The translations under genes were made by a program, and so were the position numbers. The notes beneath the pieces were generated by a model, which was not told the DNA's origin, made no database searches, and saw only the letters and a list, made by a program, of their open reading frames with translations. Of a DNA stretch of 64,000 nucleotides, positions 13,804 through 53,108 are shown in pieces (positions within the stretch are counted from its first letter, which is position 1; each line of letters starts with the position of its first letter). Origin of the DNA: an uncultured Candidatus Saccharibacteria bacterium (GTDB taxonomy: Bacteria; Patescibacteriota; Minisyncoccia; Phycocordibacterales; Zambryskibacteraceae); NCBI GenBank assembly GCA_964509605.1, contig CAZDXF010000002.1:25514-89513 (forward strand), written 5' to 3'.

Positions 13804-13804
13804 A

Positions 13805-14188
13805 ATGGCAGCAATTTTTGGAAAAAAGAAAAAAGATAAAGTGGAAGAAGCACCAAAAGAAGTGGTGAAGCAATCCTCTGAATCAAAGAAGACGGCTCCC
13901 ATTGTTTCTTCAGACTTTAAAAACCCCCTTCTCTCCCCGAGAATTACTGAAAAAGCTTCTGAAAGAGCTATGAACGGGAATGCCTATGTTTTTAATGTGG
14001 ATCAAAGGGCGACAAAAAAAGATATTTCAAAAGCCGTATCAAAAATTTACAAAGTTTCTCCGGTCAAAGTTTCTGTGGTTAGGATCCCAAGAAAGCAGAT
14101 TGTCGTGAGAGGGAAAAAGGGCATGCGTCCTGGTGGTAAGAAAGCCTATGTTTACTTGAAAGACGGAGACAAAATAGAATTTGTATAG
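13805..14188 (+). CDS. rplW: 50S ribosomal protein L23
   Basis: L23 C-terminal core with an N-terminal extension; operon position. Confidence 0.8.
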   Translation: MAAIFGKKKKDKVEEAPKEVVKQSSESKKTAPIVSSDFKNPLLSPRITEKASERAMNGNAYVFNVDQRATKKDISKAVSKIYKVSPVKVSVVRIPRKQIVVRGKKGMRPGGKKAYVYLKDGDKIEFV

Positions 14189-14198
14189 AAAATCATGA

Positions 14199-14281
14199 AT
14201 CCCGTTAGAAAGGACAAAAAAATAGGTTGCTATGGTCAAATTGCTTATCAATATGTTATAAGTAGTACTTTCTAACGGGAT
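14199..14281. repeat. Palindromic intergenic element, family A, copy 2
   Basis: ATCCCGTTAGAAA (14199-14211) / TTTCTAACGGGAT (14269-14281). The 3' arm ends in the rplB ATG. Confidence 0.5.
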
Positions 14282-37084: not shown

Positions 37085-37099
37085 TGAACGATTACATAG

Positions 37100-37173
37100 T
37101 CCGCCCTCCAGGATTCGAACCTGGGACCCCGGAGGTATAAGCTCCGTGCTCTAACCAACTGAGCTAAGGGCGG
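37100..37173 (-). tRNA. tRNA-Ile (anticodon UAU)
   Basis: Cloverleaf: acceptor CCGCCCU/AGGGCGG, D-stem GCUC/GAGC, anticodon stem CGGAG/CUCCG with loop CUUAUAC, T-stem CCAGG/CCUGG, T-loop UUCGAAU. CCA not encoded. Confidence 0.65.
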
Positions 37174-39672: not shown

Positions 39673-41832
39673 CTATTCAAGGTGTATTTTCGCGTTTTTA
39701 TCTGACAGTCTTTTTTTTAGATTTGGAAATTTTTTTATCTCTGGATCTTTTGCTACTAGATTTTTAGCTTCCTCTCTGGCAATTTCGACCATTTTTATAT
39801 TTTTTATGGCCTCCATTCCGAGGTCAGTGATTCCCCATTGTTTTTTACCATAGAGTTCACCAGCCCCTCTTTGTATCAAATCAAATTCTGCTAATTCAAA
39901 TCCGTTTCTCGCCGTCTTTAAAGCTTTTAATCTTTCAAAACTTTTCATACTTTTTGATTCTGAAAAAACAAAACAATACGGCTGATGGTTGCTTCTCATC
40001 ACTCTTCCACGAAGCTGGTGGAGTTGAGCGAGTCCAAACCTCTCTGCACCCTCTATTAAGATGGTGCTTGCGTTTAAAACATTCACTCCAACTTCCACAA
40101 CCGAAGTTGATACAAGAATGTGATATTTTCCATCTTTAAAATCGTTCATTACTTCCTCTTTATCTTTTGGTTTCATCTTGCTGTGGAGTATTCCTATTTC
40201 GTATTCCGGAAACACCTCTTTTTTTAGTCTTTTCGATTCTTCTTTTACAGACTTTGCTTGTAGTGCCATCTCTTTTGTTGGGTCTGGTTCGTCAATTCTT
40301 GGACAAATTACAAAAATTTGCCTTCCCACTTTCAATTCACTTCTTATTTTTTCATACACCTCATCTCTTTGGTTTGGAAGAACTATTTCAGTAATTGGCA
40401 TTTTTCTTCCTTTTGGCATTTCATCCAAAAGTGATAAATCCAAATCTCCATAAACCGTCAAAGCCAGAGTTCTTGGTATTGGAGTGGCTGTCATTGATAA
40501 GAGGTGGGGTAGAGGACCCTCCTTTTCTCGCAGTTTTTTTCTTTGCTCAGTTCCAAATCGATGTTGCTCATCTATTATTACCAAAGCTAGGTGCTTAAAC
40601 TTAACAGTTTTTTGGATCAGCGAGTGTGTGCCTATTAAAATTGGTATTTCTCCATTTGCTACCCATTTCAAAAGTTGAGTTCTAGAAATCTCTGTCGCTC
40701 CATTCGGAGAGACTTTTGAAGGAAATTTTTTGCACCCACTACTTGTAATTAGCCCAACCTGTATTTGCACTCCATCTGGATTGAAATATTTAATAAAAGA
40801 TTCAAAGTGCTGTTGCGCCAAAATTTCAGTGGGCGCCATATAGGCAACTTGAAGGTTTCCAAAGTCCGCTTCGTTTGGTCTAGTGCTTACAACCGCATAT
40901 GATGCCATAGCCGCTACGGCTGTTTTTCCGCTTCCCACATCTCCCTCTAAGAGTCTCGACATCGGTTCTCCTCTTTTGAAATCTTCTAGGATATGACTTA
41001 TGGATCTTTTTTGCGCTTTTGTTAGTGGAAAAGGAAATCTTTGCGCAAATTCCAACACCTCACTTTCATTTCTTTTTATTGAAAAGCTTTTGTGCGTCTT
41101 CCATTTTTCTTTTGCCAACGCTTTTTCTATTTGAATTAGAAAAATTTCTTCAAATGCAAATCTTTTTCTTGCGGAAAGAGCGTGATTTTCTTTTTTTGGA
41201 GAGTGTATCCAAATTAAAGAGGTTTTTAAGTTTGGAAGATTATATTTTTTTAAAATCTCTTCGGGTATGGGGTCTTTTATTTCATCCAGTACGCCCGTTT
41301 TAAATATTTTCTGAACAGAGTGATAGACCCAGTTTGATGTCATACCCCTTGTCTCTGGGTAAACGGGGTATAAGGTTTTTTCTTTGCCTCCTTCTGAAAA
41401 AAGAGAAAATCCGGCGCCAGAAGGCATTTGGGGAACGCTTTCAATTTTTGGGTTTGAGAGGTACAGATCTCCGTTTCTCTCGCTTACTTTTCCTTGAGCT
41501 TTTACAAAAGTTCCTTCATTTATCATCTTTGCCAAGTATGGCTGATGAAACCAGACTATCTTTACAGAGCCCGTAGGATCTTCAATTCGCGCTTCAGCCA
41601 TAGGAATTTTTTTCCTAAACGCTTTTTTGGTTTTTAGTCCAGAAATTTTTCCAGCGATTACAACTTCATCACCTTTTGCCAGCTCACTTATATTTTTGAA
41701 TTCGTCTGTTCCGCCGTATTTTCTTGGGAAGTAGTAAAGAAGGTCAAGTAATGTTTCAAGCCCTATTCGTTTGAGGGCTTTTGCGTGACTTTCTTTAAGT
41801 CTAAAGAAGTCCTTGAGTAGCTGTTTTCCCAT
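39673..41832 (-). CDS. recG: ATP-dependent DNA helicase RecG
   Basis: Wedge domain plus SF2 helicase motifs (GDVGSGKT, DEQH). Confidence 0.9.
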   Translation of the reverse strand: MGKQLLKDFFRLKESHAKALKRIGLETLLDLLYYFPRKYGGTDEFKNISELAKGDEVVIAGKISGLKTKKAFRKKIPMAEARIEDPTGSVKIVWFHQPYLAKMINEGTFVKAQGKVSERNGDLYLSNPKIESVPQMPSGAGFSLFSEGGKEKTLYPVYPETRGMTSNWVYHSVQKIFKTGVLDEIKDPIPEEILKKYNLPNLKTSLIWIHSPKKENHALSARKRFAFEEIFLIQIEKALAKEKWKTHKSFSIKRNESEVLEFAQRFPFPLTKAQKRSISHILEDFKRGEPMSRLLEGDVGSGKTAVAAMASYAVVSTRPNEADFGNLQVAYMAPTEILAQQHFESFIKYFNPDGVQIQVGLITSSGCKKFPSKVSPNGATEISRTQLLKWVANGEIPILIGTHSLIQKTVKFKHLALVIIDEQHRFGTEQRKKLREKEGPLPHLLSMTATPIPRTLALTVYGDLDLSLLDEMPKGRKMPITEIVLPNQRDEVYEKIRSELKVGRQIFVICPRIDEPDPTKEMALQAKSVKEESKRLKKEVFPEYEIGILHSKMKPKDKEEVMNDFKDGKYHILVSTSVVEVGVNVLNASTILIEGAERFGLAQLHQLRGRVMRSNHQPYCFVFSESKSMKSFERLKALKTARNGFELAEFDLIQRGAGELYGKKQWGITDLGMEAIKNIKMVEIAREEAKNLVAKDPEIKKFPNLKKRLSDKNAKIHLE

Positions 41833-41872
41833 CGCTCTATTGTATAAGAGCTTGGACTTGTGAGGAAATGCT

Positions 41873-42385
41873 CTATTTAACTATCACCAAACCTGTTCTA
41901 GAAGAATTCATGTGGTTGTGGAAATACCATTTTCCTATTTCTGTGAATGTAAAAGTGTATGTTCCGCCTCTGCCTACAGAAATTCTCTGATCAAATGCTG
42001 GATATGCGCTGTGAGAGGGGTGAGGATTTGAAGCAACCCACATTTGTTGATTACTTTCGTTTATAAATTGCACTGAGCCACCCTTGCTTATGGTTATTGT
42101 TGTCGGAGAAAATCCTTCATTTGTATATCTTACTGTTGCTGGAGGAAGGGCATGGGATGAAACTTGAGGTTGCACAACAGTTGGACTTGGCGCTTGTGGT
42201 TTTGGTGCAGAATTCTGACCATTTCCTGCAGAAGTTTCTTCAGAAACTGTTTCCTGCAAATCTTCTGCTGTGGGAGCAACAGTTTCTTTTTTACCAGCCA
42301 TTAAAGAAGCAAAAAGTACAATTATTAATATTGTGAGAACCGCTATCAATATATTTTTTTTATTCATATTTTTAATATTTTGCAT
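41873..42385 (-). CDS. Hypothetical secreted protein (cupredoxin-like C-terminal beta domain?)
   Basis: Signal/TM, Pro/Gln-rich linker, C-terminal beta-rich domain. Confidence 0.4.
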   Translation of the reverse strand: MQNIKNMNKKNILIAVLTILIIVLFASLMAGKKETVAPTAEDLQETVSEETSAGNGQNSAPKPQAPSPTVVQPQVSSHALPPATVRYTNEGFSPTTITISKGGSVQFINESNQQMWVASNPHPSHSAYPAFDQRISVGRGGTYTFTFTEIGKWYFHNHMNSSRTGLVIVK

Positions 42386-42407
42386 ACATTTAAATTATAC
42401 ACCTAAA

Positions 42408-42821
42408 TTATTTTCCGACTTGGGTTATGAAAAATGCTACAGTCGTTGAGAACCCGGTGATAAAAAATCCCCAAGCCATATCAGCAAGAGAGAGTTTCCA
42501 GCTCCATCCCGAAAGAGTAGCGAGGTTTGTCATATCGTATATTCCATAGACTATGAGTCCAAAAACTCCTCCTATTAAAAATGCTTTTATCAAGGTGGCG
42601 TCTGAACTAACTTTGGGTAGGGCAAAAAGGACCACTCCGAGAGCTAAGAAAATATAAGCGAACACTACGCCAGACCAATCTGGAGAAAGTTTCTCTCCGA
42701 CTCTACGCGCCAAGGCCCCTAGGTTGGTGTTATAAAAATCAGCCATCACTATGGATAGCCAAATATAGTCAAGAATTACAAAAGAAACGAGCGCACCAAT
42801 AAAAGGTTGTATAAAGCTCAT
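42408..42821 (-). CDS. Small multi-TM membrane protein (DUF2177-like)
   Basis: 4 TM segments. Confidence 0.45.
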   Translation of the reverse strand: MSFIQPFIGALVSFVILDYIWLSIVMADFYNTNLGALARRVGEKLSPDWSGVVFAYIFLALGVVLFALPKVSSDATLIKAFLIGGVFGLIVYGIYDMTNLATLSGWSWKLSLADMAWGFFITGFSTTVAFFITQVGK

Positions 42822-42842
42822 CCTAAAATTTTAGCACAATTT

Positions 42843-43298
42843 TTATTTTAGATCGGCTATTATTATTTTTTTCATTTGCATCATTTTTGCAAAAGCTTTT
42901 GGGTCTTGAACCCATTCATCAATCCCTTCTGGTGCCACTTGCCAGCTAAGACCGTATTTGTCTTTAAGCCAACCACAAACACTCTCTTGTCCACCGTTCG
43001 AAGTGAGTTTTTCCCAGTAGTAATCTATTTCCGATTGATCTTTACAGTTAATCAAGAATGAAACAGATTCATTAAATTTAAATTCAGATCCAGCATTTAT
43101 TGCGATAAAGCTCTGTCCTAGAATCTCAAATTCTATAGTCAAAACTTTTTCAGCAAATTCTTTTTGGAAGTCCGCAAGTCCTTCTTTTGGATAATAATTT
43201 ATTGAAATTATTTTTCCTTCTGGAAAAACAGAAAGATAAAAATCAACAGCTTCTTTGGCATTTCTATCAAACCATAAATTTGGAACAATCTTTTTCAT
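42843..43298 (-). CDS. VOC-family PhnB-like protein (3-demethylubiquinone-9 3-methyltransferase domain)
   Basis: N-terminal PNLWFD...EAVDFY motif typical of PhnB-like VOC proteins. Confidence 0.65.
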   Translation of the reverse strand: MKKIVPNLWFDRNAKEAVDFYLSVFPEGKIISINYYPKEGLADFQKEFAEKVLTIEFEILGQSFIAINAGSEFKFNESVSFLINCKDQSEIDYYWEKLTSNGGQESVCGWLKDKYGLSWQVAPEGIDEWVQDPKAFAKMMQMKKIIIADLK

Positions 43299-43552
43299 AT
43301 TTTTTTAAAATCCTTTCTGGCGGTGTATTTTAAAAATAGCTCGAACTGCATTCCCTCGCCGAGCTTCGCGCGGCTCGGGTGCGGCGGGGCAAAAATGAGC
43401 GGCTCCGCCTCGCACACTGACAATTTTAAGTTTTTCTTTGGCGGAATACAAATTCGAGCGTGCGAAGCACCCACAAAATAGTTCTTTCAAACTCAAAAAG
43501 AAAGGCGCCGTACCCGGAGGTCGTGCGCCTGATTGCGACCGCATGACGCGGT

Positions 43553-43891
43553 CTAGTCCTTCTTGCCCTGGACATACTCGGGAACCTCGGCGAGCATCTC
43601 CGAGAGCATCCAGCCGGCCACAGCTTCCTTGTCCTCGTGCGAGAGGCCGAAGGTGCCGAGCAGGCCGAGGAAGCAATCCTTCTGGTGTCGCTGTACCGTC
43701 TCGTCGCCGGACTTCCATTTCCAGTTGGCGATGTTGGCACCGCCGAAGAAGACGCGGCTTGCGTAGCTCGACCACGGATTGTAGAGTTTGAATTCGGGCG
43801 GACAGAGCTTCGCGAGCTCACGCTCGTTGGAGAGTCCACCGAATGCCTGGCCGTGACCAGCGAACAGCGGGGACGCCGTCTGCGTTTCCAT
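43553..43891 (-). CDS. Hypothetical protein encoded in the high-GC island segment
   Basis: ATG at 43889-43891, preceded by AAGGAGGTG 7 nt upstream. 112 aa (METQTASPLFAGHGQAFGG...). The overlapping ORFs in other frames are GC artefacts. Confidence 0.5.
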   Translation of the reverse strand: METQTASPLFAGHGQAFGGLSNERELAKLCPPEFKLYNPWSSYASRVFFGGANIANWKWKSGDETVQRHQKDCFLGLLGTFGLSHEDKEAVAGWMLSEMLAEVPEYVQGKKD

Positions 43892-44127
43892 CGTATTCAC
43901 CTCCTTCAAGGTTTAGTTTCCAACCTAGACGTCGTGCCTAAGTTGATAAGTACCATAGCACGACTTGAATTATCAGTCAAGAAACGACCGAGCGTTGCTT
44001 CTTGGAAAAAATCAGAATGAAAAAATTTCTTTTACCCTTATTGATAAAAGCATTTCTTTTTCGCCAAAAATTCCATACGAATTAGCCGCCGAGCGAAGCG
44101 AGGCGGACAGCCTGCATTTGCAAAATC

Positions 44128-44320
44128 CTTTCTGCGGTGATGTATTAGCCTTTGCGCGAACTCATTTTGAACGAAAGGAATGATGCGCGCCTCGTCCGCT
44201 CCCTTCGGTCGCGATCCCAAAACCAAAAATTTTCCTTCCTTTCTTAGATTTTCGGCGGGGGGTGTGGGGGGGAGCCGACAAAAAATGGAAAGGAAATTTT
44301 TGGTTTTGATTCGCCGCTTC
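44128..44320. repeat. 193-bp inverted repeat, left copy (IR-A)
   Basis: Perfect reverse complement of 45783-45975. Begins with the core CTTTCTGCGG. Confidence 0.9.
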
Positions 44321-44533
44321 AGACTACAAAAAGAGTAGATATTTGTATTTTAACACATTTGACTACTCTTTTCTCCGTCTTCGCGGCGAGACGAGGCGCT
44401 TCCAATTCGGTTGCGCTGAAGCGCATCATATTTGTATTGTGCTTGCCCCGCCCGCCCAGTGCGCGCACAAAGCCGTGCCGTTTTGAAGAAATATTATAAA
44501 ACGGCAAAACGGCGGGGATGGCTCCCTAGAAAA

Positions 44534-45481
44534 CTAATAACTAAAATTGACAGTCACGCTATCGCTGGAAGAATCAACTTTTCCGCTACTTGCCCCGCAA
44601 GTAAGTTGATACGTAGTCACGCCTGTCTTTTCATTTCCTGTCCAAACATTTTCAGATCCACTGGTGGACTTGGCACCAGACCAATATGTATCGCCTGAAG
44701 CAGTACAGTAATCAGAATTGTTTGATGTCCAACTGAAATTAGAGTAGCCAGCCGATTTTGTTATCGGGCCATCTGAATTGTTTATTTTTAGATCAGCTGA
44801 TGGCAGTTGCTGTGTTAACTGAAATGGCACTGTCACTGGATTCGAAGAATTAGTGCCGCCAGCTCCGGTACAGGAAACTGTATATGTCGTAGTCTGGGAA
44901 AGGGATACCGCCATCGACCCAGACGGTGATAATTTTGATTTTTCGAAATTACAGTAAGTCGCATTTGTTGATGACCAGTAAAGTGTAATTGTTCCGGGCT
45001 TCCCGTCAGAAACAATTGACGTTGGGTTCGCGTATAGGTACACGCTCGGAGACGGAATTGTTGTCTGGATAGGGTTAGGTGTCGGTGTAGGATTCGTTGG
45101 GGTTGGAGTTGTAACCGACGGAATTACTGATGCTGTGTTTCCACATTTACTGTTCCATAAGTTCCGTGTCTTTGGGCCATAAGTGCCGAAACCAAAAGTG
45201 TTCGATGGAATTCCAAGCCACGCTTGCAGTTGCGACACTCGACCGCCTGGCTCGGTGTCAAAATTGCCATAAGAGAGGTCGGCAAAGGTACTGCACGACA
45301 GCACACCTGTGGACCCCTGCAATTGGGCAATCTGTGCTTGAAGCGCTTTAATCTGCGCGAGCAAGGCCTGTATTTGAGCGGCAACATCAGTTGTTTGTGC
45401 AAAAGTTGGCGTTGCAAAGCCAATGGACACAAGAATTCCAAGCGTCAAGAATCCTGTGGCAATATATTTTTTCATGGTCAT
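44534..45481 (-). CDS. Secreted surface protein: signal peptide, Ala/Gln coiled coil, Thr/Pro linker, Ig-like beta domains
   Basis: N-terminal signal MTMKKYIATGFLTLGILVSIGFATPTFA, then AQIQALLAQIKALQAQIAQLQ, then TPTPTNPTPTPNP, then Ser/Thr/Gly-rich beta domains. Confidence 0.65.
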   Translation of the reverse strand: MTMKKYIATGFLTLGILVSIGFATPTFAQTTDVAAQIQALLAQIKALQAQIAQLQGSTGVLSCSTFADLSYGNFDTEPGGRVSQLQAWLGIPSNTFGFGTYGPKTRNLWNSKCGNTASVIPSVTTPTPTNPTPTPNPIQTTIPSPSVYLYANPTSIVSDGKPGTITLYWSSTNATYCNFEKSKLSPSGSMAVSLSQTTTYTVSCTGAGGTNSSNPVTVPFQLTQQLPSADLKINNSDGPITKSAGYSNFSWTSNNSDYCTASGDTYWSGAKSTSGSENVWTGNEKTGVTTYQLTCGASSGKVDSSSDSVTVNFSY

Positions 45482-45494
45482 TTATTATTGATAA

Positions 45495-45716
45495 TTATTT
45501 AATAAAATACTTAATATCCTTACCATATAGTTTAGCAAATCGTTGAAGTTCGACAACATCAACTCTTTGCTGTCCTGATTCAACATTTGAGATGTGCGAT
45601 TGCGGACGTTTCAACTTTTTTGCCACTTGCACTTGGGTCAATCCTACTTCTTGCCGAGCCGCCCGCAACCGCTCAACAAAATAGGCATATTCCTTTGTGT
45701 GGATTGACTTAACCAT
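45495..45716 (-). CDS. XRE-family helix-turn-helix transcriptional regulator
   Basis: LTQVQVAKKLKRPQSHISNVESGQQ HTH motif. Putative promoter at 45720-45780 (minus strand). Confidence 0.75.
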   Translation of the reverse strand: MVKSIHTKEYAYFVERLRAARQEVGLTQVQVAKKLKRPQSHISNVESGQQRVDVVELQRFAKLYGKDIKYFIK

Positions 45717-45782
45717 ATGATACTATGGTCTATCCAAACATTCAATATCCAAACTTTAGATATTGTGATAAACTAGATTTTG

Positions 45783-45975
45783 GAAGCGGCGAATCAAAAC
45801 CAAAAATTTCCTTTCCATTTTTTGTCGGCTCCCCCCCACACCCCCCGCCGAAAATCTAAGAAAGGAAGGAAAATTTTTGGTTTTGGGATCGCGACCGAAG
45901 GGAGCGGACGAGGCGCGCATCATTCCTTTCGTTCAAAATGAGTTCGCGCAAAGGCTAATACATCACCGCAGAAAG
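45783..45975. repeat. 193-bp inverted repeat, right copy (IR-A')
   Basis: Perfect reverse complement of 44128-44320. Ends with CCGCAGAAAG. Confidence 0.9.
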
Positions 45976-46096
45976 AAACTTCCAAATCCGAAAGGTGGGA
46001 AGAAGCCCGCGCCGAAGGCGCGGGGCTAGGCAAAATGTTCCGTCGCTCCGCGACGAATTGGGACGGAATGGGCAGGGCGAAATGGGCGGATTTGTC
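45966..46096. repeat. 131-bp inverted repeat, left copy (IR-B); shares the CCGCAGAAAG core with IR-A'
   Basis: Reverse complement of 47512-47642 with one mismatch. Contains the hairpin gcccgcgccgaaggcgcggggc. Confidence 0.85.
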
Positions 46097-46122
46097 CTTG
46101 TTTCAATCTAAAAGCAATTTAT

Positions 46123-47691
46123 ATGTCCAAACCAAAGTATTTTCTTTACGCTCGCAAGAGCATCGAGGACGATGACCGACAAGTGATGTCCATTGAGGCA
46201 CAGCTTTTTGAGTTGCGAGAATTGGCGCGTAAAGAAAATCTTGAAATTCTTGAGGAATTTCAAGAGTCGAAAAGCGCAAAGACGCCTGGACGCGAGGTAT
46301 TCGGCGAAATGATGTTAAAAGTAGAGAAATTGGATGGTGTCGGCATATTAGCGTGGCATCCCGATCGCCTCGCGCGTAATTCGATTGACGGTGGACGAGT
46401 AATTTACGCCGTGGACACTCGCAAGGTTGTGTCTTTGCGCTTCCCGACATTTTGGTTTGAACCAACCCCGCAAGGGCTCTTTATGTTGCAAGTGGCGTTT
46501 GGGCAGAGCAAATATTATTCTGATAACTTATCCGACAATATTAAGCGAGGTGTCCGCCAAAAATTGAGACGTGGCGAATGGTTGAACTTAGCTCCCTTTG
46601 GCTATCAAAACAACCCGCGTATTAGAAATATTGAACCTCATCCGACAAATGCTCGCGTGGTGAAGTTAGCTTTTGAGGAATACGCCAAAGGTTCGCACAC
46701 TTTTATTTCGCTCGCGCAATTTTTGGCGGACTTAGGTGTGGTAACAAAACACCAAACGCCACTCGCCAAAGTTTCCATCAAACGACTTCTTACTCATCGA
46801 GCATATCTCGGTTTCGTGAAGCATGGACAAGAATGGTTTGATGGAAACTTTGAGCCAATTATTTCTCCCGCATTGTTTGAAGCCGTGCAGAAAGTATTGC
46901 AAACGAAGGAAAGGCCGCGCAAAAGGAAAATCAAGCATGATTTTCCTTTTACCGGACTTTTTCGATGTGGCGAGTGTGGCAGTATGATTTCCGCACAGTG
47001 GGCAACTGGAAAGTCTGGTCGTCGTTATCGGTATTATCGGTGCTCGAAAAAGCGCGGCCATTGTTCGCAAGCTTATTTACAAGAAAGTGAACTTACGAGG
47101 CAAATCTGTGCACGGCTTCAAACAATTTCGCTTTGCGATCGCTATACCGACTGGATGTTAGATAAAGTGAAACTGTGGGAGCACGAGGAAATTGGAGCGT
47201 CGCAAAGCGAGGTTCAAAATCTTTCCGATAGTATCAAAGCGAACGAGGAGCGCATGGAAAAACTACTCTCGGCGTATTTAGATGGTGATGTACCAAAAGA
47301 GGTTTACCTTAAACGAAAAGATGTTCTCATGCGCTCTCTCGCCGCTTTGAAAGAGAAAAAGAAAGATTTTGAACGCGGAAGAAAAAATTGGGTCGAACCC
47401 TTGCGGGAATGGATTTTAGATATGAAACAAGCCGATTTTTTGTCCTCTTCGTCTGATTTGTACCAAATCAAGTCGTTCGTCCAAAAAATCGGAACGAACC
47501 CCTTGGTTCGTGACAAATCCGCCCATTTCGCCCTGCCCATTCCGTCCCAATTCGTCGCGGAGCGACGGAACATTTTGCCTAGCCCCGCGCCTTTGGCGCG
47601 GGCTTCTTCCCACCTTTCGGATTTGGAAGTTTCTTTCTGCGGAAGGGGAGGGATTCGAACCCTCGGACCGATTTCTCGGTCAACACATTAG
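46123..47691 (+). CDS. Large serine recombinase (resolvase/invertase catalytic domain + recombinase domain + zinc ribbon)
   Basis: N-terminal YARKSIEDDDRQ...SIEAQ catalytic serine motif, DRLARN, C-terminal CGECGS...YYRCSKK zinc ribbon. The ORF tail reads through IR-B' into the tRNA, so the true stop is uncertain. Confidence 0.8.
   Translation: MSKPKYFLYARKSIEDDDRQVMSIEAQLFELRELARKENLEILEEFQESKSAKTPGREVFGEMMLKVEKLDGVGILAWHPDRLARNSIDGGRVIYAVDTRKVVSLRFPTFWFEPTPQGLFMLQVAFGQSKYYSDNLSDNIKRGVRQKLRRGEWLNLAPFGYQNNPRIRNIEPHPTNARVVKLAFEEYAKGSHTFISLAQFLADLGVVTKHQTPLAKVSIKRLLTHRAYLGFVKHGQEWFDGNFEPIISPALFEAVQKVLQTKERPRKRKIKHDFPFTGLFRCGECGSMISAQWATGKSGRRYRYYRCSKKRGHCSQAYLQESELTRQICARLQTISLCDRYTDWMLDKVKLWEHEEIGASQSEVQNLSDSIKANEERMEKLLSAYLDGDVPKEVYLKRKDVLMRSLAALKEKKKDFERGRKNWVEPLREWILDMKQADFLSSSSDLYQIKSFVQKIGTNPLVRDKSAHFALPIPSQFVAERRNILPSPAPLARASSHLSDLEVSFCGRGGIRTLGPISRSTH
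47512..47642. repeat. 131-bp inverted repeat, right copy (IR-B'); abuts and overlaps the 3' end of tRNA-Ser
   Basis: Reverse complement of 45966-46096. The core CTTTCTGCGG at 47633-47642 includes the tRNA's last bases. Confidence 0.85.
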
Positions 47692-47726
47692 CAGTGTGCT
47701 GCATTCGACCGCTCTGCCACCCTTCC
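47640..47726 (-). tRNA. tRNA-Ser (anticodon GCU), class II with long variable arm
   Basis: Acceptor GGAAGGG/CCCUUCC, D-stem GCA/UGC, anticodon stem GCACA/UGUGU with loop CUGCUAA, variable arm GACCGAGAAAUCGGUC, T-stem GAGGG/CCCUC, T-loop UUCGAAU. Confidence 0.8.
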
Positions 47727-47783
47727 TTTTTGTAGGCTGTAATCTATCATACTCTGCTTTCACTTCAAAACATCCCCCACTAT

Positions 47784-48443
47784 TTAATGAGCCATTGTAA
47801 AAGCCAATACTTTTTTAGCGCCTGCGGAAATCAGTGTTTTTCTAGCTTCTGACAGGGTGCTTCCGGTTGTTACCACATCGTCTATCAAAATTATCTTTGC
47901 GCCCGATATTTCATAACTGTTTTTGATTTCAAAACACCCTTCAAGATTTTTCAACCACTCCTTTCTTTTTAAAGAAGTTTGCGGTAGCGTGTCTTTTTTT
48001 CTAATCAAAATTTCTTTATTGTATTTAAGCAAACCACTCTGATCATTTTTTAAAATTGCTTCACAGATAAGCTCTACTTGGTTAAAACCCCGTTCAGTTT
48101 TTCTCTTTTTAGAAAGGGGAATTGGAATAAGGATAAAGTTTTTGTTTGCACTAGCCACCAGCTCATCTCCCAGGTTGTCTATGATTCTTTCGTAAATTAA
48201 ATTGCTAACCGCTTGTGAAAGTTTCTTATTTTCTTTGTATTTTATTGCCCAGACCAAAGCTCTTACTCTTCTGTCTCCATAATCAAACACAGATTCTGCC
48301 CACGATATCTTGTTATCAACACACTGCGGGAGGTAAGATAGCTTATTTTCATCAGCCATTTTTTCTAATTCCAAAACAGCTTTTTCTTTGGGAAATATGA
48401 AATCAACAATCTCTCCTGCTATTTTGGTCAGAAGACTTAACAT
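47784..48443 (-). CDS. comF: Competence protein ComF (phosphoribosyltransferase domain)
   Basis: C-terminal PRTase motif ILIDDVVTTGSTL. Confidence 0.7.
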   Translation of the reverse strand: MLSLLTKIAGEIVDFIFPKEKAVLELEKMADENKLSYLPQCVDNKISWAESVFDYGDRRVRALVWAIKYKENKKLSQAVSNLIYERIIDNLGDELVASANKNFILIPIPLSKKRKTERGFNQVELICEAILKNDQSGLLKYNKEILIRKKDTLPQTSLKRKEWLKNLEGCFEIKNSYEISGAKIILIDDVVTTGSTLSEARKTLISAGAKKVLAFTMAH

Positions 48444-48489
48444 ACAATAATTCTATATCAGTATTTACCCTTCGTGCTATAATTTTCCT

Positions 48490-49605
48490 ATGGCCAACAT
48501 CTTTGGAACTCTTTTCCACAAAAAAAGCGGAAGTGTCTTGGGTATAGACATAGGCACCTCTGCTATTAAAGTTGTTCAACTCAAAAAAAGCGGTGGAAAG
48601 GCGATTCTTGAGACATATGGCGAACTGGCCCTTGGACCATATGCGGGGGCAGAAATAGGACAAGCTACAAATCTTCCGACAGAAAAGATAGTTGAAGCCC
48701 TTTCCGATCTGATGAGAGAAAAAGAAGTCAATCTTTCTTCAAATAAGTGCGGTATGGCAATACCTTTTTCTTCAAGTCTGATGACTCTTTTGGAGATGCC
48801 TTCTCTTCCCACAAAGCAACTTGAGACAATGATTCCTTTGGAGGCTAGAAAATATATTCCGGTTCCGATTTCCGAAGTGGTACTTGATTGGTCTGTTATC
48901 CCGAAAGATGAGAAAGAAGAAGAGGAACAGGAAGAAAAAGAGAAGCACGGTCCAGCCAGAGTAAAAAAGTCAGATATTTTACTTGTTGCAATTCACAATG
49001 AAACTTTAAATAAGTATCAGGAAATAATGACAAAGACTGGTCTGGAAGCGAGTTTTTTTGAAATAGAGATTTTTAGCACCCTTCGAGCCGTTTTGGACAC
49101 AGAGGTAAAGCCCGTGATGCTTATAGATATGGGAGCTGCTACTACAAAACTTTATATTGTGGAAAGAGGAATTGTGCGCGCATCTCACACTGTAAACAGA
49201 GGATCACAAGACATAACTACAACAATATCTCAATCATTGGGTGTGCCTGTGGCCAGAGCAGAAGTTTTAAAAAGATCTGTTGGAGCTATGTCTGGAGGCG
49301 AAGTAGATTTAAGAGAAATTATCCGTATTGGTTTGGCACACATTTTTTCAGAAACCAATCAGGTAATACTTAACTATCAAAAAAGATACAATAAAGCTAT
49401 TGAAAAGATTGTCATGGTTGGCGGGGGTTCTGCGCTCAAAGGGTTACCCGAGCTTGCAAAGAGCAGTTTTCAGTTTGAAGTAGAAGCGGGCAATCCGTTT
49501 TTGAAAGTAGAAGCTCCTGCATTCTTGGAAAAAGTGCTGAGAGAGACCGGACCAGAATTTGCTGTTTCTGTTGGAGTTGCCCTTCGGCGTCTCCAAGAAA
49601 ACTAA
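48490..49605 (+). CDS. pilM: Type IV pilus assembly protein PilM
   Basis: Actin-like ATPase fold (GIDIGTSAIKVV). First gene of the pil locus. Confidence 0.85.
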   Translation: MANIFGTLFHKKSGSVLGIDIGTSAIKVVQLKKSGGKAILETYGELALGPYAGAEIGQATNLPTEKIVEALSDLMREKEVNLSSNKCGMAIPFSSSLMTLLEMPSLPTKQLETMIPLEARKYIPVPISEVVLDWSVIPKDEKEEEEQEEKEKHGPARVKKSDILLVAIHNETLNKYQEIMTKTGLEASFFEIEIFSTLRAVLDTEVKPVMLIDMGAATTKLYIVERGIVRASHTVNRGSQDITTTISQSLGVPVARAEVLKRSVGAMSGGEVDLREIIRIGLAHIFSETNQVILNYQKRYNKAIEKIVMVGGGSALKGLPELAKSSFQFEVEAGNPFLKVEAPAFLEKVLRETGPEFAVSVGVALRRLQEN

Positions 49606-49716
49606 ATTCTTTTCTGTGGATTAGAAATTACCACACTAATGTTTCAAGTGTAGTATAATATTTTCAAAAGAGAAGAACGAAATTTCTTGGCTTTTCAAAA
49701 CTAAAATATTTATAGG

Positions 49717-50421
49717 ATGGATCCAAAATTTCAACCATCTTTCATACCAAAAAAAGCAGACTCTGGTCTGGACTCTTTCAAGAGGCCATCTAGCACCTCC
49801 GGAGGTTTGTTTTATCTACTTGGCGTTTCTTTATTTGTTCTTGCTTTGATTTCAGCAACAGGTGTTTTTGTGTATGAAAAATACTTAAACAGTCGAATAT
49901 CAAAGATGCAGGCTGATCTAGAAACAGCAAGACAGGCTCTAAACCCCGAACTAGTAAAGGACCTTTCTAGATCTCATGCGAGAATGATGTCTGCCAGAGA
50001 GATATTGTCAAAGCATGTTTCTATGACATCTTTCTTTTCTCTTTTGGGTTCTCAAACTCTTCAGGCCGTAAGTTTTAACGATTTTTCTCTAATGTCTTCT
50101 GGTGATGGAGCAATAACTGTAGAAATGTCCGGAGAATCTAGAGATTACAAAACAGTTGCATTGCAGTCTGAAATATTTTCCAACAATCCCTATTTTAGAA
50201 ACCCGTCTTTTTCAGGTCTTGATTTAAATGAATCTGGAAATGTTATTTTTAGATTTAAATCTGGTATTTCTCCGGACTTGGTTTTGTATGAAAAAACTTT
50301 TGAAGTAAAGCCAGTTTCGGAGATAACTCCACCGCCAGCCTCATTGCCCGAAGAATCAGCAACTGATTCAGCCGAAACTGAGCCGGTCGGAAATGAACAA
50401 GGCCCAGTAAACCCATCATGA
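49717..50421 (+). CDS. pilN: PilN-like protein
   Basis: Single TM then coiled coil; position after pilM. Confidence 0.55.
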   Translation: MDPKFQPSFIPKKADSGLDSFKRPSSTSGGLFYLLGVSLFVLALISATGVFVYEKYLNSRISKMQADLETARQALNPELVKDLSRSHARMMSAREILSKHVSMTSFFSLLGSQTLQAVSFNDFSLMSSGDGAITVEMSGESRDYKTVALQSEIFSNNPYFRNPSFSGLDLNESGNVIFRFKSGISPDLVLYEKTFEVKPVSEITPPPASLPEESATDSAETEPVGNEQGPVNPS

Positions 50422-50966
50422 GAAGTTTAATGCCCATACTTTTAATATCTGTTTCCTTAGCACTTTTCTATGTTTTCATAGATCCGCGTCTTGAGGCCGT
50501 CAGAGATTTGGTTGAAGAAGAAAATCAGTATCAAGAGGCAATCGCAAAAGCTGAAGAACTTATGGTTGTAAGGGACCAGCTTCTTTCTCAATACAACTCA
50601 ATTCCAGATGGAGATTTGGATAGACTTGAGAGAATAGTTCCAGATTCAGTCAATTTTGTTAAACTTGTTGCTGATATAGACTCTGTTGCTGGTAGATACG
50701 GAATAGCTCCCCGTGGCATAGAGGTGAAGGAAGTACTAGACGAATCTTTGGGTATAGGTGATACCGCAAGTTTGACGCCATATCTTTCCTCGACAATCAC
50801 CTTTTCGTTTGTAAGTTCTTATGAAAATCTCGTAAACTTTCTAACCGACTTGGAAAAGAGTCTTCAGATGATTGATATAAAGTCCATCACTTTCTCAACG
50901 GAAGGGGAAGACAGCGACCTTCACAACTTTAATGTGTCTTTTGACACATATTGGTTAAGACAATAA
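50418..50966 (+). CDS. pilO: PilO-like protein
   Basis: Single TM plus coiled coil. Start overlaps the pilN stop. Confidence 0.55.
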   Translation: MRSLMPILLISVSLALFYVFIDPRLEAVRDLVEEENQYQEAIAKAEELMVVRDQLLSQYNSIPDGDLDRLERIVPDSVNFVKLVADIDSVAGRYGIAPRGIEVKEVLDESLGIGDTASLTPYLSSTITFSFVSSYENLVNFLTDLEKSLQMIDIKSITFSTEGEDSDLHNFNVSFDTYWLRQ

Positions 50967-50971
50967 ATTTT

Positions 50972-51277
50972 ATGCAACTTGGAAACTTAAAACAATTTTC
51001 AGCCGCAGTCATCATAATAGCCGTTATAGGTTTCGGTATTTATTTTTTGTTTATTAGAGGAGGTGGAGAGGAAGCTGAAATTTTGTTTGATGAATTTGGT
51101 TATCCAATAGAAGCGCAGGCTGTGGGTCAAGACTTGATAAGTCTTCTTGAAGAACTTCAGTCTGTTTCTTTTGACTCTTCTTTATTCAGATCTCCCGCTT
51201 TTGTGAATCTGACCGATTATTCCGTAGATTTAGGCACACAGCCCCAAGGAAGAACAAACCCGTTTGAGGGAATCTAA
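50972..51277 (+). CDS. Small single-TM protein (PilP-like?)
   Basis: Position and topology only. Confidence 0.3.
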   Translation: MQLGNLKQFSAAVIIIAVIGFGIYFLFIRGGGEEAEILFDEFGYPIEAQAVGQDLISLLEELQSVSFDSSLFRSPAFVNLTDYSVDLGTQPQGRTNPFEGI

Positions 51278-51326
51278 TTTTATCCTCTGTATATAAATAG
51301 TTTTTTGTTCTACAATTTCAAGCAGG

Positions 51327-53108
51327 ATGAGTCTTCTTGATACTTTAGCTGAAAAAAAAATAATCAATAAAGCTGATATTCCTTCTATTTTGGATGAAGC
51401 AGAATCGGCTGGTATTACTGTTGAGCAAGTTTTAATAAAAAGTGGAGTTGACCCAAGTGTTATTTTAAAAAGCAAAGGAGATTTTCTTGAAATTCCAGTT
51501 AAGGATTTAAAGGGGAAAGAAATTTCTGGAAAAATTTTGGAGTATATTCCAGAGGAATCAGCGTCTCATTATAGGTTTTTACCTTTGGGTGTAAAAGACG
51601 GCGTCTTGGAAGTCGGGGTTGTTGATCCAGACAATATAGAGGCTCGTGATGCACTGAATTTCATTTCTTCAAAAATCGGGATGCCGTTTAAAATTTTCCT
51701 TATTTCGGAACAGGATTTTGAATCAGCAATGGGAGGATATAAAGGTTTGTCTGGAGAGGTCACGCAAGCTCTTTCAGAGCTTGAAACAGAGCTCAAGGGC
51801 AAAAAAAATGAGCAGGATGAAGACGAAGAGGATACGGGAGCATCAGCGGAAGAGACGGATGCTTCTGCAGATTTGTCCGACATTGATACAAGTAAGTTAA
51901 AAAAAGACGGGAAGGAAGAAAAAATAATTGAGGATGCACCAGTTACAAAAATAGTCGCCACGATTTTGAGATACGCTACAGACGGAAACGCTTCAGACAT
52001 TCACATAGAAAGGATGCGCGACAATGTTCGCGTCAGATTTAGGGTTGACGGCACAATGAATACAAGTTTGGTCCTACCAACGAAGATTCATTCAGCAGTT
52101 GTGGCTCGTATAAAAATTCTCTCTAGTATGCGTTTGGATGAGAAAAGAAAACCCCAAGACGGAAGATTCAGCGCAAAGGTGGGAGACAAAAGAATAGATT
52201 TTCGTGTGTCTACTTTTCCGGCATATTTTGGAGAGAAAGTGGTGATGAGAATCTTGGACCCACAAAAAGGAGTTAAATCTCTAGATGAACTAATGCTCAC
52301 AGAGAGAAACCTCCGCCTCATAAGGGAAGCTCTCAAAAAACCTTACGGAATGGTCCTTATTTCAGGTCCGACCGGTTCGGGAAAATCAACAACTCTTTAT
52401 TCAATGTTGAATGAAGTAGATAGAGAGCACAAAAATGTTTTGTCTCTGGAAGATCCTGTTGAGTATACGATTGAAGGAATGAACCAGTCTCAAATTCGTC
52501 CTGAAATAGGTTATAACTTTGCTACAGGTCTTAGAACCACTTTGCGTCAGGACCCGGACATAATAATGGTTGGTGAGATTAGAGATAAAGAGACCGCACA
52601 GCTTGCTATCCAAGCCGCTCTCACTGGACACTTGGTCTTTTCTACAATCCACACCAACAATGCTGTAGGCGTCATTCCTCGTCTTATAGATATGGGAGTG
52701 GACCCATATCTTATTGCCCCCACTTTGGTTTTGGCCATTGCTCAGAGACTCGTTAGAGCTTTCTGTCCAGGTGCTGGTAAGCCCATTCCAGTAGAAGGAA
52801 GTATAAAATTGATGCTTGAGAAACAGTTTGCGGATTTACCAGAAAAATACAGAAAAGAGATAGAATTTGGTAAAGAGGTTTATGAAATATCTCCGACAGA
52901 AGATTGTCCAAATGGTACAAGGGGTCGGTATGCTGTAATGGAAGTTATGGAAATGGACAGAGGGGTGGAGGAGATAATTCTAAAAGGAGGCACAGAAATA
53001 GATTTAGCAAAAGCGGCACGAGAGAGAGGTATGCTTTCTATGAAAGAGGACGCAATACTCAAGGCATTTAAGCGACTCGTTCCTTTTGAGGATGTCGGGA
53101 CATTGTAA
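51327..53108 (+). CDS. pilB: Type IV pilus assembly ATPase PilB (GspE family)
   Basis: Walker A GPTGSGKSTT, Asp box, His box, tetracysteine-like region. Confidence 0.9.
   Translation: MSLLDTLAEKKIINKADIPSILDEAESAGITVEQVLIKSGVDPSVILKSKGDFLEIPVKDLKGKEISGKILEYIPEESASHYRFLPLGVKDGVLEVGVVDPDNIEARDALNFISSKIGMPFKIFLISEQDFESAMGGYKGLSGEVTQALSELETELKGKKNEQDEDEEDTGASAEETDASADLSDIDTSKLKKDGKEEKIIEDAPVTKIVATILRYATDGNASDIHIERMRDNVRVRFRVDGTMNTSLVLPTKIHSAVVARIKILSSMRLDEKRKPQDGRFSAKVGDKRIDFRVSTFPAYFGEKVVMRILDPQKGVKSLDELMLTERNLRLIREALKKPYGMVLISGPTGSGKSTTLYSMLNEVDREHKNVLSLEDPVEYTIEGMNQSQIRPEIGYNFATGLRTTLRQDPDIIMVGEIRDKETAQLAIQAALTGHLVFSTIHTNNAVGVIPRLIDMGVDPYLIAPTLVLAIAQRLVRAFCPGAGKPIPVEGSIKLMLEKQFADLPEKYRKEIEFGKEVYEISPTEDCPNGTRGRYAVMEVMEMDRGVEEIILKGGTEIDLAKAARERGMLSMKEDAILKAFKRLVPFEDVGTL

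Follow-up and report, generated by a model that had tools for sequence, protein, structure and literature searches.

A candidate tRNA-targeting serine recombinase element of Patescibacteria with an internal, inverted attP-like site

The hin gene of Salmonella lies inside the invertible H segment. The yeast 2-micron plasmid has an FLP/FRT system with inverted repeats, in which the recombinase is of the tyrosine type. The integrases of archaeal SSV-type elements are also tyrosine recombinases; their attP lies inside the int gene, which integration splits in two. The TnpX/TndX elements (Tn4451, Tn5397) and those of IS607 TnpA are without long inverted repeats and insert at many sites. The ultra-small Patescibacteria (CPR) account for a large part of bacterial diversity. 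They cannot be grown alone and, to our knowledge, almost no mobile elements have been described from them.

We analyzed a stretch of 64,000 nucleotides (the window) from contig CAZDXF010000002.1 of an uncultured Candidatus Saccharibacteria bacterium, in which a gene encoding a large serine recombinase (LSR) is flanked by inverted repeats and abuts a tRNA-Ser gene (Table 1). With a probability of roughly 0.6, we read positions 44128-47642 as a site-specific, LSR-driven integrative element that targets tRNA genes, has three sites sharing a short core and holds an internal, inverted attP. No description of this architecture was found in the literature searched, and the locus represents a widespread, apparently undescribed family of small mobile elements in Patescibacteria/CPR.

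Table 1. Coordinates of the features discussed, numbered from the first nucleotide of the window
Feature	Position	Strand	Evidence or remark
Degenerate, probably older P-arm remnant (old attR scar), "B" side of left junction	44058..44127	+	local alignment
IR-A left arm, the putative P' arm at X	44116..44320	+	repeat pairs I1, I5; hairpin 44218-44308, 28-bp stem, G-rich loop
Core at X, CTTTCTGCGG	44128..44137	+	X / rc(Y) / Z alignment; family-wide minimum TGCGG
Cargo gene, 315-aa protein, no Pfam family	44534..45481	-	ORF and Pfam search
HTH_3/XRE-type regulator, divergent from LSR gene	45495..45716	-	Pfam 1e-12; conserved; opens the cargo module beside Y
IR-A right arm, the putative P' arm of internal site Y, inverted	45783..45987	-	repeat pair I1
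Core of Y, CCGCAGAAAG; Y = rc(P-core-P')	45966..45975	-	site alignments
IR-B left arm, the putative P arm of Y, inverted	45966..46096	-	repeat pair I2; ends 26 bp before LSR ATG
LSR ORF, 522 aa	46123..47691	+	last ~60 codons in IR-B' and tRNA
Intrinsic-terminator-like hairpin and T-run, tRNA strand, inner edge of IR-B'	47494..47511	-	inside conserved KIGTNPLVR motif
IR-B right arm (IR-B'), the putative P arm of attR-like site Z	47512..47642	+	encodes LSR C-terminal tail; three hairpins and conserved GAAGTTTC...TG box
Core at Z	47633..47642	+	last 3 nt = tRNA discriminator and acceptor end
tRNA-Ser(GCT), putative integration target (B' half-site)	47640..47726	-	Rfam; ARAGORN gives 47639-47726

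The recombinase gene and its inverted repeats

A repeat search of the window recovered the 131-nt pair that a sequence-only reading of this DNA had described around the recombinase gene (IR-B, 99% complementary, arms 1415 nt apart). Such a near-perfect repeat is well past chance expectation, and its single mismatch sits in a hairpin loop (GCGCC-G/A-AAGGCGC). It adjoins a second pair, IR-A, with 205-nt arms matching at 98%. The two had been thought to overlap by a 10-bp core. The overlap covers 45966-45987; the 10 nt of CCGCAGAAAG are the only stretch exactly common to the three sites X, Y and Z described below, and the remaining 12 nt match only in part. As had been proposed, the right copy ends in the acceptor end of the tRNA, covering the last 3-4 nt of its gene. 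The Rfam search returned the tRNA alone; a sub-threshold match to a plastid 3'UTR, antisense to the tRNA, was disregarded.

The resolvase, recombinase and zinc-ribbon domains that the earlier reading had suggested looking for were all found by Pfam in the LSR: PF00239 (Resolvase, 2e-19, residues 7-153), PF07508 (Recombinase, 1.6e-13, residues 174-261) and PF13408 (Zn_ribbon_recom, 1.2e-10, residues 275-332). A YARKS motif with the putative catalytic Ser is present at residues 9-13. The protein is distantly similar to the SPbeta and A118 integrases, CcrB and XisF, and its alignment to the SPbeta integrase covers residues 9-416. The zinc-ribbon domain may hold the coiled-coil insertion that controls directionality in LSRs. 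The look-up of the exact protein returned no record.

The gene had been placed entirely between the two arms. This is not the case, as IR-B' is entered from codon 464 and the frame passes through it into the tRNA gene, where the first stop is met (47689-47691). The suspected read-through is real and family-wide: homologs extend through the arm, and an in-frame stop was found in 1 of 101 arms, as compared with 40-47% of arms with a stop in the other frames. The LSR ORF has no stop of its own and never ends inside the element. At the other end of the gene, the distance from the left IR-B arm to the LSR ATG is conserved (modes 26-27 bp), and the 26-bp leader shows no convincing promoter.

These features were surveyed across Patescibacteria genomes and metagenomes, in about 160 related loci. 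An inverted repeat of about 131 bp brackets the LSR gene in 101 of the 110 copies having enough upstream sequence, and its arm begins at codon 463-464 in 75 of these 101. Homologs normally ending well before position 47512, together with diverged IR-B copies, would have argued against functional sites; instead the pair is kept in more than 100 loci, and the view that the arms hold real recombination sites of the recombinase's own system holds. Both repeat pairs, with 1.1-6 kb of cargo, were identified in 40 elements, the second pair bracketing the variable cargo wherever the flank was long enough. In 38 of the 40, the pairs overlap at the shared core by 4-14 nt with no spacer. The family appears abundant: each of the two collections scanned yielded more than 500 confirmed relatives, and a protein search gave 5150 proteins at E <= 1e-10, the best 120 of the 5150 being 69-94% identical. 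The IMG/VR scan gave a single relative, 24% identical, suggesting that the family is not phage-borne. Several genomes have 2-3 copies, and many assemblies break at the repeats.

Attachment sites, inserted unit and orientation

When X, the reverse complement of Y, and Z were aligned in the window and about 100 loci, identity switched at a core of 4-10 nt. From these alignments, X (44116-44137) has the structure flank-core-P' and is attL-like, and Z (47621-47642) has the structure P-core-tRNA and is attR-like. Y (centred on 45966-45975) is an intact, attP-like P-core-P', inverted, just upstream of the LSR gene and between it and the divergent HTH-cargo module. IR-B thus exists because the 131-bp P arm occurs at Z and, inverted, at Y, and IR-A because the P' arm occurs at both X and Y. 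No attP is expected to remain once an element has integrated, yet the site alignments show Y intact in the integrated copies of nearly all loci. The start of P', TGAnATnnTAnCCTTTGCGCGAAC, is conserved to the same extent.

The core varies with the tRNA: it is TGCGG in 25 of 31 Ser loci, TGTGA in 25 of 27 Glu loci, TGTGC for Arg, Leu and Gly and TGTGG for Ala. A CGAA box lies 13 nt from the end of the repeat on the tRNA side (62 loci) and 19 nt from it on the P' side (55 loci), a shift of 6 bp. This resembles the published attB/attP offset of the zinc-ribbon domain, which is 4 bp in SPbeta and is predicted to be 5 bp for most integrases (PMC11722253). Outside the left junction, the putative remnant listed in Table 1 aligned locally to the inner P arm with a score of 31 (shuffles: mean 16.5, sd 2.7, max 28), and its ATTTGCAAAATC resembles the core-proximal P-arm sequence ATTTGGAAGTTT.

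The inserted unit, delimited by the site alignments, would measure about 3.5 kb and lie immediately 3' of tRNA-Ser(GCT). Across the family loci, the right arm abuts the 3' end of a tRNA gene with its outer end. Every insertion occupied either the 3' end of a tRNA gene or a resident P-core site, none was at a random site, and no target duplication was seen beyond the core. A syntenic relative (L166) has an empty homologous site, tRNA-Ser(gct)...CCG-CA, with the next gene 35 nt on and no element; this comparison is at the level of synteny, ComF being only 58% identical, and the element boundaries are inferred in that way. The window's element adjoins ComF and type IV pilus genes.

Tandem arrays in a single orientation were found in four loci (L082, L015, L022 and L031). 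They define the inserting unit as P'-cargo-Y-LSR-P, with Z serving as target for incoming elements. Scars were seen in L105. Neither a circular form nor a product of X x Z excision was seen, and no contig had terminal direct overlaps; five short contigs with LSR-P-core-P' (L081, L101, L135, L137 and L151) are indistinguishable from tandem copies or assembly paths through Y. Logan look-ups of two flanking proteins returned only SRR15237813 contigs breaking at or near the repeats, with no alternative junctions.

The cargo differs by locus and is made up of defence or accessory genes, among them R-M methylases, toxin-antitoxin genes, AbiL, AriA and others. The cargo operon is mostly transcribed away from Y. 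Homologs of the HTH gene are always at the Y-proximal end on the minus strand, and none lies near X, as in a flipped cargo, among the ~30 elements with an identified HTH (12 loci and ~16 more). The 138 cargo proteins included no Rep or origin family, and genes for transfer or replication are missing from the elements. Nor was a recombination directionality factor identified; the gene for the 73-aa HTH_3 protein is the sole companion to be conserved.

The recombinase gene has a nearly fixed orientation. It reads toward an abutting convergent tRNA in 122 of the 141 copies with 3' flank, and 2 of the 119 copies with upstream flank are flipped, one of them without its first 89 codons. In L106 (5' end intact), tRNA-Ser(+) directly adjoins the upstream arm, but this is a 4.1-kb contig in which a mis-join across the 131-bp repeat is possible; a search for a near-identical canonical counterpart of this element found none. 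In the second copy of L130, tRNA-Pro(+) adjoins the upstream arm and P' follows the downstream arm. LSR inversion therefore occurs occasionally but is rare, transient or selected against. An orientation this invariant is that of neither a free-running inversion switch nor an IS with terminal repeats.

Within a locus the two arms are nearly identical, and between loci they have diverged: in 98 of the 101 loci, no foreign arm is closer to an arm than its own partner is. The near-perfect identity probably reflects concerted evolution or recent copying and not chance. Mismatches show a weak gradient, from about 0.9% near the core to about 2% further in, and the difference in arm identity between pseudogenised and intact LSR copies was not significant (p = 0.16, n = 8). 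GC-rich hairpins are present in all arms, most of them without a T-run; under a strict rule, a terminator-like hairpin is found in 41 of 87 distinct loci. Pairing in the arm hairpins is kept by compensatory changes, which hints at a function as single-stranded DNA or RNA of which the integrative-element model makes no use. The 340-nt Y region folded as DNA was overall unexceptional (z-score -0.9).

Models for the element

In the model we favor, the P arm would have three parts to play. It would carry the LSR half-site next to the core, encode the C-terminal tail of the LSR and, on the other strand, give the tRNA gene a new hairpin-rich 3' trailer reaching up to the terminator-like hairpin. Excision by X x Z would form a circle whose re-formed attP completes the LSR ORF, the stop then falling 43-58 nt into P'. 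In the family, the ORF end indeed lies 43-58 nt past the core in the P-core-P' configuration versus 7-550 nt when integrated. The circle junction would then recombine with a tRNA gene at its 3' end; the core would match the last tRNA nucleotides, and the recombinase would read the T-arm CGAA as a B-type half-site. Resident P-core-tRNA sites would be reused, giving the tandem arrays, and Y would be carried along intact.

We tentatively suggest that Y might act before the gene as an LSR operator and transcriptional insulator; just as tentatively, it might on rare occasions recombine with Z and so invert the LSR module. About 50 bp suffice for a recombinase operator and the repeats are identical over 130-300 bp, so the operator role leaves the length of the repeats unexplained. 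A further difficulty lies in the polarity of insertion. With two identical, inverted attP in the circle, integration should be open to each of them. Instead, X invariably marks the cargo-distal end, and the 3' end of the LSR gene falls at Z in about 98% of copies, which counts against the model. On paper, we also considered a linear fragment joined via Y, a dumbbell with replicative resolution and two circle isomers; none yields the observed polarity without an extra assumption.

The sequence-only reading had proposed self-inversion, and a switch in which the LSR inverts its own module (46097-47511) via Y and Z is an unlikely alternative that nevertheless has several observations on its side. 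The gene in the common orientation, converging on the tRNA gene and ending in a foreign, tRNA-derived tail, would be silent. Once flipped, it would lie directly downstream of the tRNA promoter and regain its native, P'-encoded tail via Y. The resulting burst of recombinase would flip the module back or mobilise the element, and with identical arms the junctions would show no trace of the flip. The ORF has a tight end only when it reads into P', the leader offers no convincing promoter and, as arrays show Z to be usable as a target, Y (attP-like) x Z would be plausible chemistry. Two flipped copies do exist, and the only one on a long contig is that without the first 89 codons, which would follow from a flipped state that is unstable with an intact LSR. 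However, 122 canonical copies stand against these two, of which L106 may be a mis-join, so that regular switching is poorly supported. Excision from the flipped state would moreover bring the HTH gene next to X upon re-integration, an arrangement never seen in the ~30 HTH elements, and recombination of the attP x attR type would be outside the LSR reactions known to us. Such Y x Z inversion might be an on/off switch for the recombinase coupled to the tRNA promoter, a reading less radical than the fold-back described next.

We consider it a long shot that the repeats act by folding back. Here, one strand would fold so that P-core-P' pairs with Y, an internal splint aligning the element ends. 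The product, a dumbbell with a double-stranded attP stem, would arise from single-stranded DNA such as that taken up by natural transformation, and would permit re-circularisation or integration without prior excision, with mismatch repair of the stem homogenising the arms. Repeat pairs meeting at one core without a spacer, arms alike within but not between loci, and compensated hairpins would all fit. So would Patescibacteria hosts, the ComF and type IV pilus genes beside the window's element and the lack of transfer or replication genes in the elements. However, there is no direct evidence for folding, the observed polarity is on paper not produced by this model alone, and all of its sequence predictions are also those of a double-stranded circle with two attP. 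We also know of no serine recombinase acting on folded single-stranded substrates. If true, these would be the first serine-recombinase elements adapted to transformation-borne single strands, and would correspond to integron attC sites or to the CTX phage with its folded attP. By folding, they would restore either a double-stranded attachment site or a circle that can be closed precisely.

It is quite improbable that the arms are passive insulators, the same bidirectional terminator block being mirrored around each module and kept identical by gene conversion, only the ~50 bp around the core having a part in recombination. The GC-rich hairpins in all arms, the terminator-like hairpin that faces the tRNA from the inner edge of IR-B' and cargo transcription mostly leading away from Y would agree with such a role, but most hairpins have no T-run, and the fixed arm boundaries would be left unexplained, as would the retention at Y, in nearly all loci, of a complete core together with both half-sites. 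Lastly, an autonomous IS-like transposon made of the LSR and 131-bp terminal repeats, next to a separate cargo cassette with repeats of its own as the sequence-only reading had also suggested, is largely refuted despite the long repeats bracketing the gene, the genomes with multiple copies and the assembly breaks, as the left IR-B arm is one half of the internal Y (the IR-A right arm being the other) and runs through the core into P' in nearly all loci, never forming a boundary, as insertions are confined to tRNA 3' ends or resident P-cores without duplication beyond the core, and as the arrays show a unit that includes the cargo.

Significance and comparison with known systems

If the integrative-element reading is right, an intact inverted attP inside the integrated copy is outside the current serine-integrase model. 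The stop-less ORF crossing the site and the long identical arms are also new to that model. Explaining this architecture should reveal how directionality or expression is controlled without a separate directionality factor, or else a new route of transfer. With their R-M, toxin-antitoxin and abortive-infection cargo, these elements are a plausible main route of defence-gene exchange in Patescibacteria. Their targets, the conserved universal 3' end and T-arm of tRNA genes with a core of 3-5 nt picking the tRNA, are attractive for integration tools, and the repeats explain why MAG assemblies frequently break at these loci.

The large serine integrases (SPbeta SprA, Listeria A118 Int, phiC31, Bxb1) have the same resolvase, recombinase and zinc-ribbon domains and the same attL- and attR-like junctions with a short common core, and the 6-bp shift of the half-site box is like their 4-5 bp attP/attB offset (PMC11722253). 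In contrast to these systems, the element described here keeps a complete inverted attP-like site when integrated, has arms of 115-310 bp duplicated as inverted repeats and has a recombinase ORF that crosses the attachment site to end in flanking DNA. It targets many different tRNA genes at their extreme 3' end, the far half of this target appears non-specific, and no directionality factor was identified.

The Hin/Gin/Cin/Pin switches share the placement of a serine recombinase gene between inverted copies of its own site, and rare flipped copies occur in this family. However, the recombinase is a 522-aa LSR and not an invertase of ~190 aa (with a C-terminal HTH in the Hin/Gin type), the arms have 131 bp rather than about 26 bp, the orientation is near-invariant across genomes, and the unit is part of an integrative element beside a tRNA gene. 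As in the 2-micron plasmid, the excised circle would have two long inverted repeats, each with a recombinase site, separating two unique segments, one of which encodes the recombinase. It would differ in using a serine recombinase and in having no replication gene or origin in the cargo, and the element is found integrated; no isomers with the segments flipped relative to each other were seen.

With the SSV-type integrases, this family shares an attachment site within the recombinase ORF, a product changed by integration and a tRNA gene as target, but here only the last ~15-19 codons are swapped and a spare copy of the site is kept. TnpX/TndX and IS607 TnpA are also serine recombinases that move small elements via a circle, with the element ends as half-sites. 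IS607 TnpA is a small enzyme with a different domain order (PMC6188088). Compared with these elements, targeting in the family described here is strictly to tRNA 3' ends with a matching core.

The element has three sites with a common core

A repeat search of 40000-52000 recovered both inverted pairs of the element, IR-A around the cargo (205 nt, 98%) and IR-B around the gene of the large serine recombinase (131 nt, 99% complementary). Given the two placements of tRNA-Ser(GCT), the right arm of IR-B covers the last 3-4 nt of this tRNA, and the first stop of the recombinase ORF lies within it. The repeat search, ARAGORN/Rfam and translation bore out what the sequence-only reading had described of IR-B, the tRNA overlap and the ORF read-through, except that the gene had been placed entirely between the IR-B arms; its last ~60 codons are in the right arm and the tRNA. 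All three domains named there were matched in a domain search. Rfam also gave a sub-threshold match on the plus strand at 47640-47691 to a plastid psbI-rps4 3'UTR family (51.9 bits, gathering score 68), and this match, on the antisense strand of tRNA-Ser, is probably mere antisense tRNA sequence.

The core CTTTCTGCGG is common to the three recombinase sites X, Y and Z. The reverse complement of Y is identical to Z on the left side of the core (this P arm is IR-B) and to X on the right side (this P' arm is IR-A). X is thus flank-core-P' and Z is P-core-tRNA, and Y is a complete inverted P-core-P' site. Two minus-strand genes occupy the X-Y interval, encoding a 73-aa HTH_3 regulator and a 315-aa protein for which no Pfam family was matched; the Y-Z interval holds the recombinase gene. 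Beside the element (47784-53108), a competence and type IV pilus cluster encodes a ComF-like phosphoribosyltransferase, PilM and a T2SSE/PilB-like ATPase, in a gene order kept in the relatives L163, L166 and L167.

Features of the element in the window and of selected related loci (L numbers)
Feature	Position	Strand	Description
IR-A arms	44116-44320 / 45783-45987		inverted pair
IR-B arms	45966-46096 / 47512-47642		inverted pair
X			...gcctgcATTTGCAAAATC-CTTTCTGCGG-TGATGTATTAGCC... (flank-core-P')
Y, reverse complement			...ctttcggATTTGGAAGTTT-CTTTCTGCGG-TGATGTATTAGCC... (P-core-P', inverted in the window)
Z			...ctttcggATTTGGAAGTTT-CTTTCTGCGG-AAGGGGAGGGATTCGAACC (P-core-tRNA; AAGGGGAGGGATTCGAACC is tRNA)
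Recombinase ORF	46123-47691		522 aa; Resolvase, Recombinase, Zn_ribbon_recom
tRNA-Ser(GCT)	47639-47726 (ARAGORN), 47640-47726 (Rfam)	minus
Terminator-like hairpin and T-run	47511-47494	minus (tRNA strand)	exactly at inner edge of IR-B right arm
IR-A arm hairpin	44218-44308 and 45795-45885		28-nt arms, 86% complementary, 35-nt loop
L022, three recombinase genes	2467, 6001, 12070		one orientation, one site
L105, scar and recombinase copy	3788-3866 and 6360-6480		scar next to tRNA-Leu; copy cargo-less
L106, flipped copy			4.1-kb contig; 5' end intact
L130, second recombinase	13382-14933		50% identical; flipped relative to tRNA-Pro

The P arm is coding and the IR-B arms evolve in concert across the family

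The recombinase protein search (E <= 1e-10) returned 5150 proteins; the best 120 of these are 69-94% identical to the query, and the named ones among those listed belong to Patescibacteria. Distant similarity extends to the SPbeta and A118 integrases and to CcrB and XisF. We collected 80 loci from species-representative genomes and 80 from metagenomes. IR-B, with an arm of at least 90 bp required, was present in 101 of the 110 recombinase copies with an intact 5' end and sufficient upstream sequence. Its right arm begins at codon 463-464 in 75 of these 101 loci and in nearly all loci overlaps the minus-strand tRNA at its outer end by exactly 4 nt, while the left arm most commonly ends 26-27 bp from the ATG. 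IR-A was also present in 40 elements with sufficient flank (61-312 bp, mostly 98-100% identical), where its right arm joins IR-B at the core and the enclosed cargo is variable (1.1-6 kb). Beyond the core from the IR-B left arm, the P' start TGAnATnnTAnCCTTTGCGCGAAC is conserved in almost all loci, a count that takes in loci whose left IR-A arm falls outside the fetched flank. Paralogs at 40-50% identity (L107, L130) likewise have both pairs, and many MAG contigs terminate inside or just beyond the repeats. The cargo encodes HTH or C-protein-like regulators, EcoRI-like proteins, N6/N4 and C5 DNA methylases, SocA/Panacea and AbiEii-type toxin-antitoxin parts, AbiL, AriA, GTP cyclohydrolase II and others. 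A scan of IMG/VR did not find the family.

Stop counts show that the P arm is coding. The recombinase reading frame is interrupted in 1 of 101 arms, whereas 40% of arms carry a stop in the two other forward frames and 47% do so in the reverse frames; with these arms scanned for stops, no recombinase ORF was found to end inside the element. Integrated copies reach their stop 7-550 nt into the flank. Were the arm joined to P', by re-formation of attP or by inversion, the stop would come at a tight 43-58 nt, so that the native recombinase ORF spans the attachment site. Own-partner similarity equaled or exceeded that to any arm of other loci in 98 of 101 loci (median identity 99.3%, compared with 80.9% to the best foreign arm and 61.5% between random pairs), and by this comparison the two IR-B arms evolve in concert.

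The P arm also contains three hairpins, with pairing kept by compensatory changes, and a conserved GAAGTTTC...TG box adjoining the core. The terminator-like hairpin falls in the conserved KIGTNPLVR codons of the recombinase and was found in 41 of 87 distinct loci under a strict rule. With such a hairpin at its inner edge, the right arm would become the new 3' trailer of the tRNA; read-through from the tRNA would yield a structured trailer of ~150 nt, antisense to the recombinase tail. The hairpin in each IR-A arm has a G-run or C-run (ggggggtgtggggggg) in its loop and recurs in L081 and L130; it may represent a terminator, a single-strand origin or a G-quadruplex.

Elements insert serially at tRNA ends matched by the core

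The target tRNAs were Ser (four anticodons), Glu, Arg, Leu, Gly, Lys, Ala, Pro and Ile, and the core follows the target: TGCGG at Ser (25 of 31), TGTGA at Glu (25 of 27), TGTGC at Arg, Leu and Gly, TGTGG at Ala and TGTCC at Lys and Ile. The first CGAA past the repeat lies at +13 nt on the tRNA side (in the T-loop; 62 loci) and at +19 nt on the P' side (55 loci). The resulting shift of 6 bp is similar to the offset between attB- and attP-type half-sites of serine integrases, which is 4 bp in SPbeta and predicted to be 5 bp in most (PMC11722253). In the syntenic relative L166 (ComF - tRNA-Ser(gct) - ... - DUF2177 - x - RecG), synteny comparison found the element absent at tRNA-Ser(gct), which ends ...CCG followed by CA, with the next gene beginning 35 nt on. 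A tRNA-Ile with anticodon TAT (window 37099-37173) recurs in L009, L082, L092, L156 and L166, and is itself a target of the family in L092 and L156.

Two or three elements are stacked in uniform orientation at one tRNA in L082, L015, L022 and L031, the older P-core being fused to the newer P' and the recombinases belonging to mixed subfamilies 41-75% identical to the query. Resident P-core-tRNA sites thus receive new insertions, and no specific sequence need be present in the far half of the target. Beside tRNA-Leu, L105 has a scar of ~100 bp, in which the core and 35 nt of P' are fused to 60 nt of P and the core; a recombinase copy in L105 lacks internal site Y, and at its left junction flank-core-P' (40 nt) is joined to the inner 73 nt of the P arm. 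In the window, the DNA to the left of X (44058-44127, including the GC-rich hairpin gccgccgagcgaagcgaggcggac) resembles a P arm in decay (an older attR scar). The alignment of 44058-44096 with the inner P arm beat all 300 shuffles, so the present element probably adjoins an older scar, which suggests repeated use of the tRNA-Ser site.

A 52-nt pseudo-copy of the 3' part of tRNA-Ser(tga), 85% identical, adjoins the element in L018 (6175-6429), with the complete tRNA ~120 nt beyond. L167 (6784-6951; likewise L168 and L169) has a 153-bp insertion 3' of tRNA-Ser(gct); its borders are marked by a 15-nt direct repeat of the tRNA 3' end, and it holds an inverted partial copy of the acceptor and T-arm (perfect inverted repeats of 14 nt and 12 nt). 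L170, with an identical ComF protein, lacks this insertion, and the two variants carry different R-M systems downstream.

Fixed polarity, the proposed mechanism and known systems

Polarity was fixed. A convergent tRNA abuts the 3' end in 122 of the 141 recombinase copies whose sequence continues for 150 bp or more past that end; tandem arrays or P-core-P' junctions account for most of the other 19. In 2 of the 119 copies with 300 bp or more of upstream sequence, a tRNA adjoins the upstream arm, which denotes a flipped recombinase module. These two copies are in L106 and L130; the L130 copy lacks its first 89 codons, the deletion beginning precisely at the arm's inner edge. The HTH gene was always the cargo gene next to Y, divergent from the recombinase gene, and a search of the loci for flipped cargo found none. 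The near-invariant orientation of the modules rules out a freely reversible switch as a form of the self-inversion suggested by the sequence-only reading. The IS-like unit with IR-B as its termini, also proposed there, is likewise excluded by the orientation data.

We propose that excision by X x Z would yield a circle bearing two attP copies, the inverted Y and one re-formed at the end of the recombinase ORF, and that integration would proceed via the re-formed site. Three options were ranked for Y. It may be an operator and insulator before the recombinase gene, or a partner for a rare Y x Z inversion, which would bring this gene downstream of the tRNA promoter and give it back its native tail, or, in a single-stranded form, a splint or stem. 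Pathways were also worked out by hand for integration of a linear fragment through Y, for a dumbbell resolved by replication and for two isomers of the circle. None gives the observed polarity unless an assumption is added, and in all of them the attP copy left unused has its P' arm next to the HTH promoter region.

Full-text literature searches returned no description of this architecture, and no paper matched Parcubacteria and serine recombinase together. Single features are common to Hin-type switches, ISs and 2-micron-like plasmids, though each was rejected as the identity of the element. Serine-integrase elements work alike and agree with it in most of the properties compared; however, they leave no attP after integration, whereas here the attP-like Y remains. 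Members of the family abound in a little-understood part of the bacterial tree, and the current model of serine integrases does not account for their architecture.
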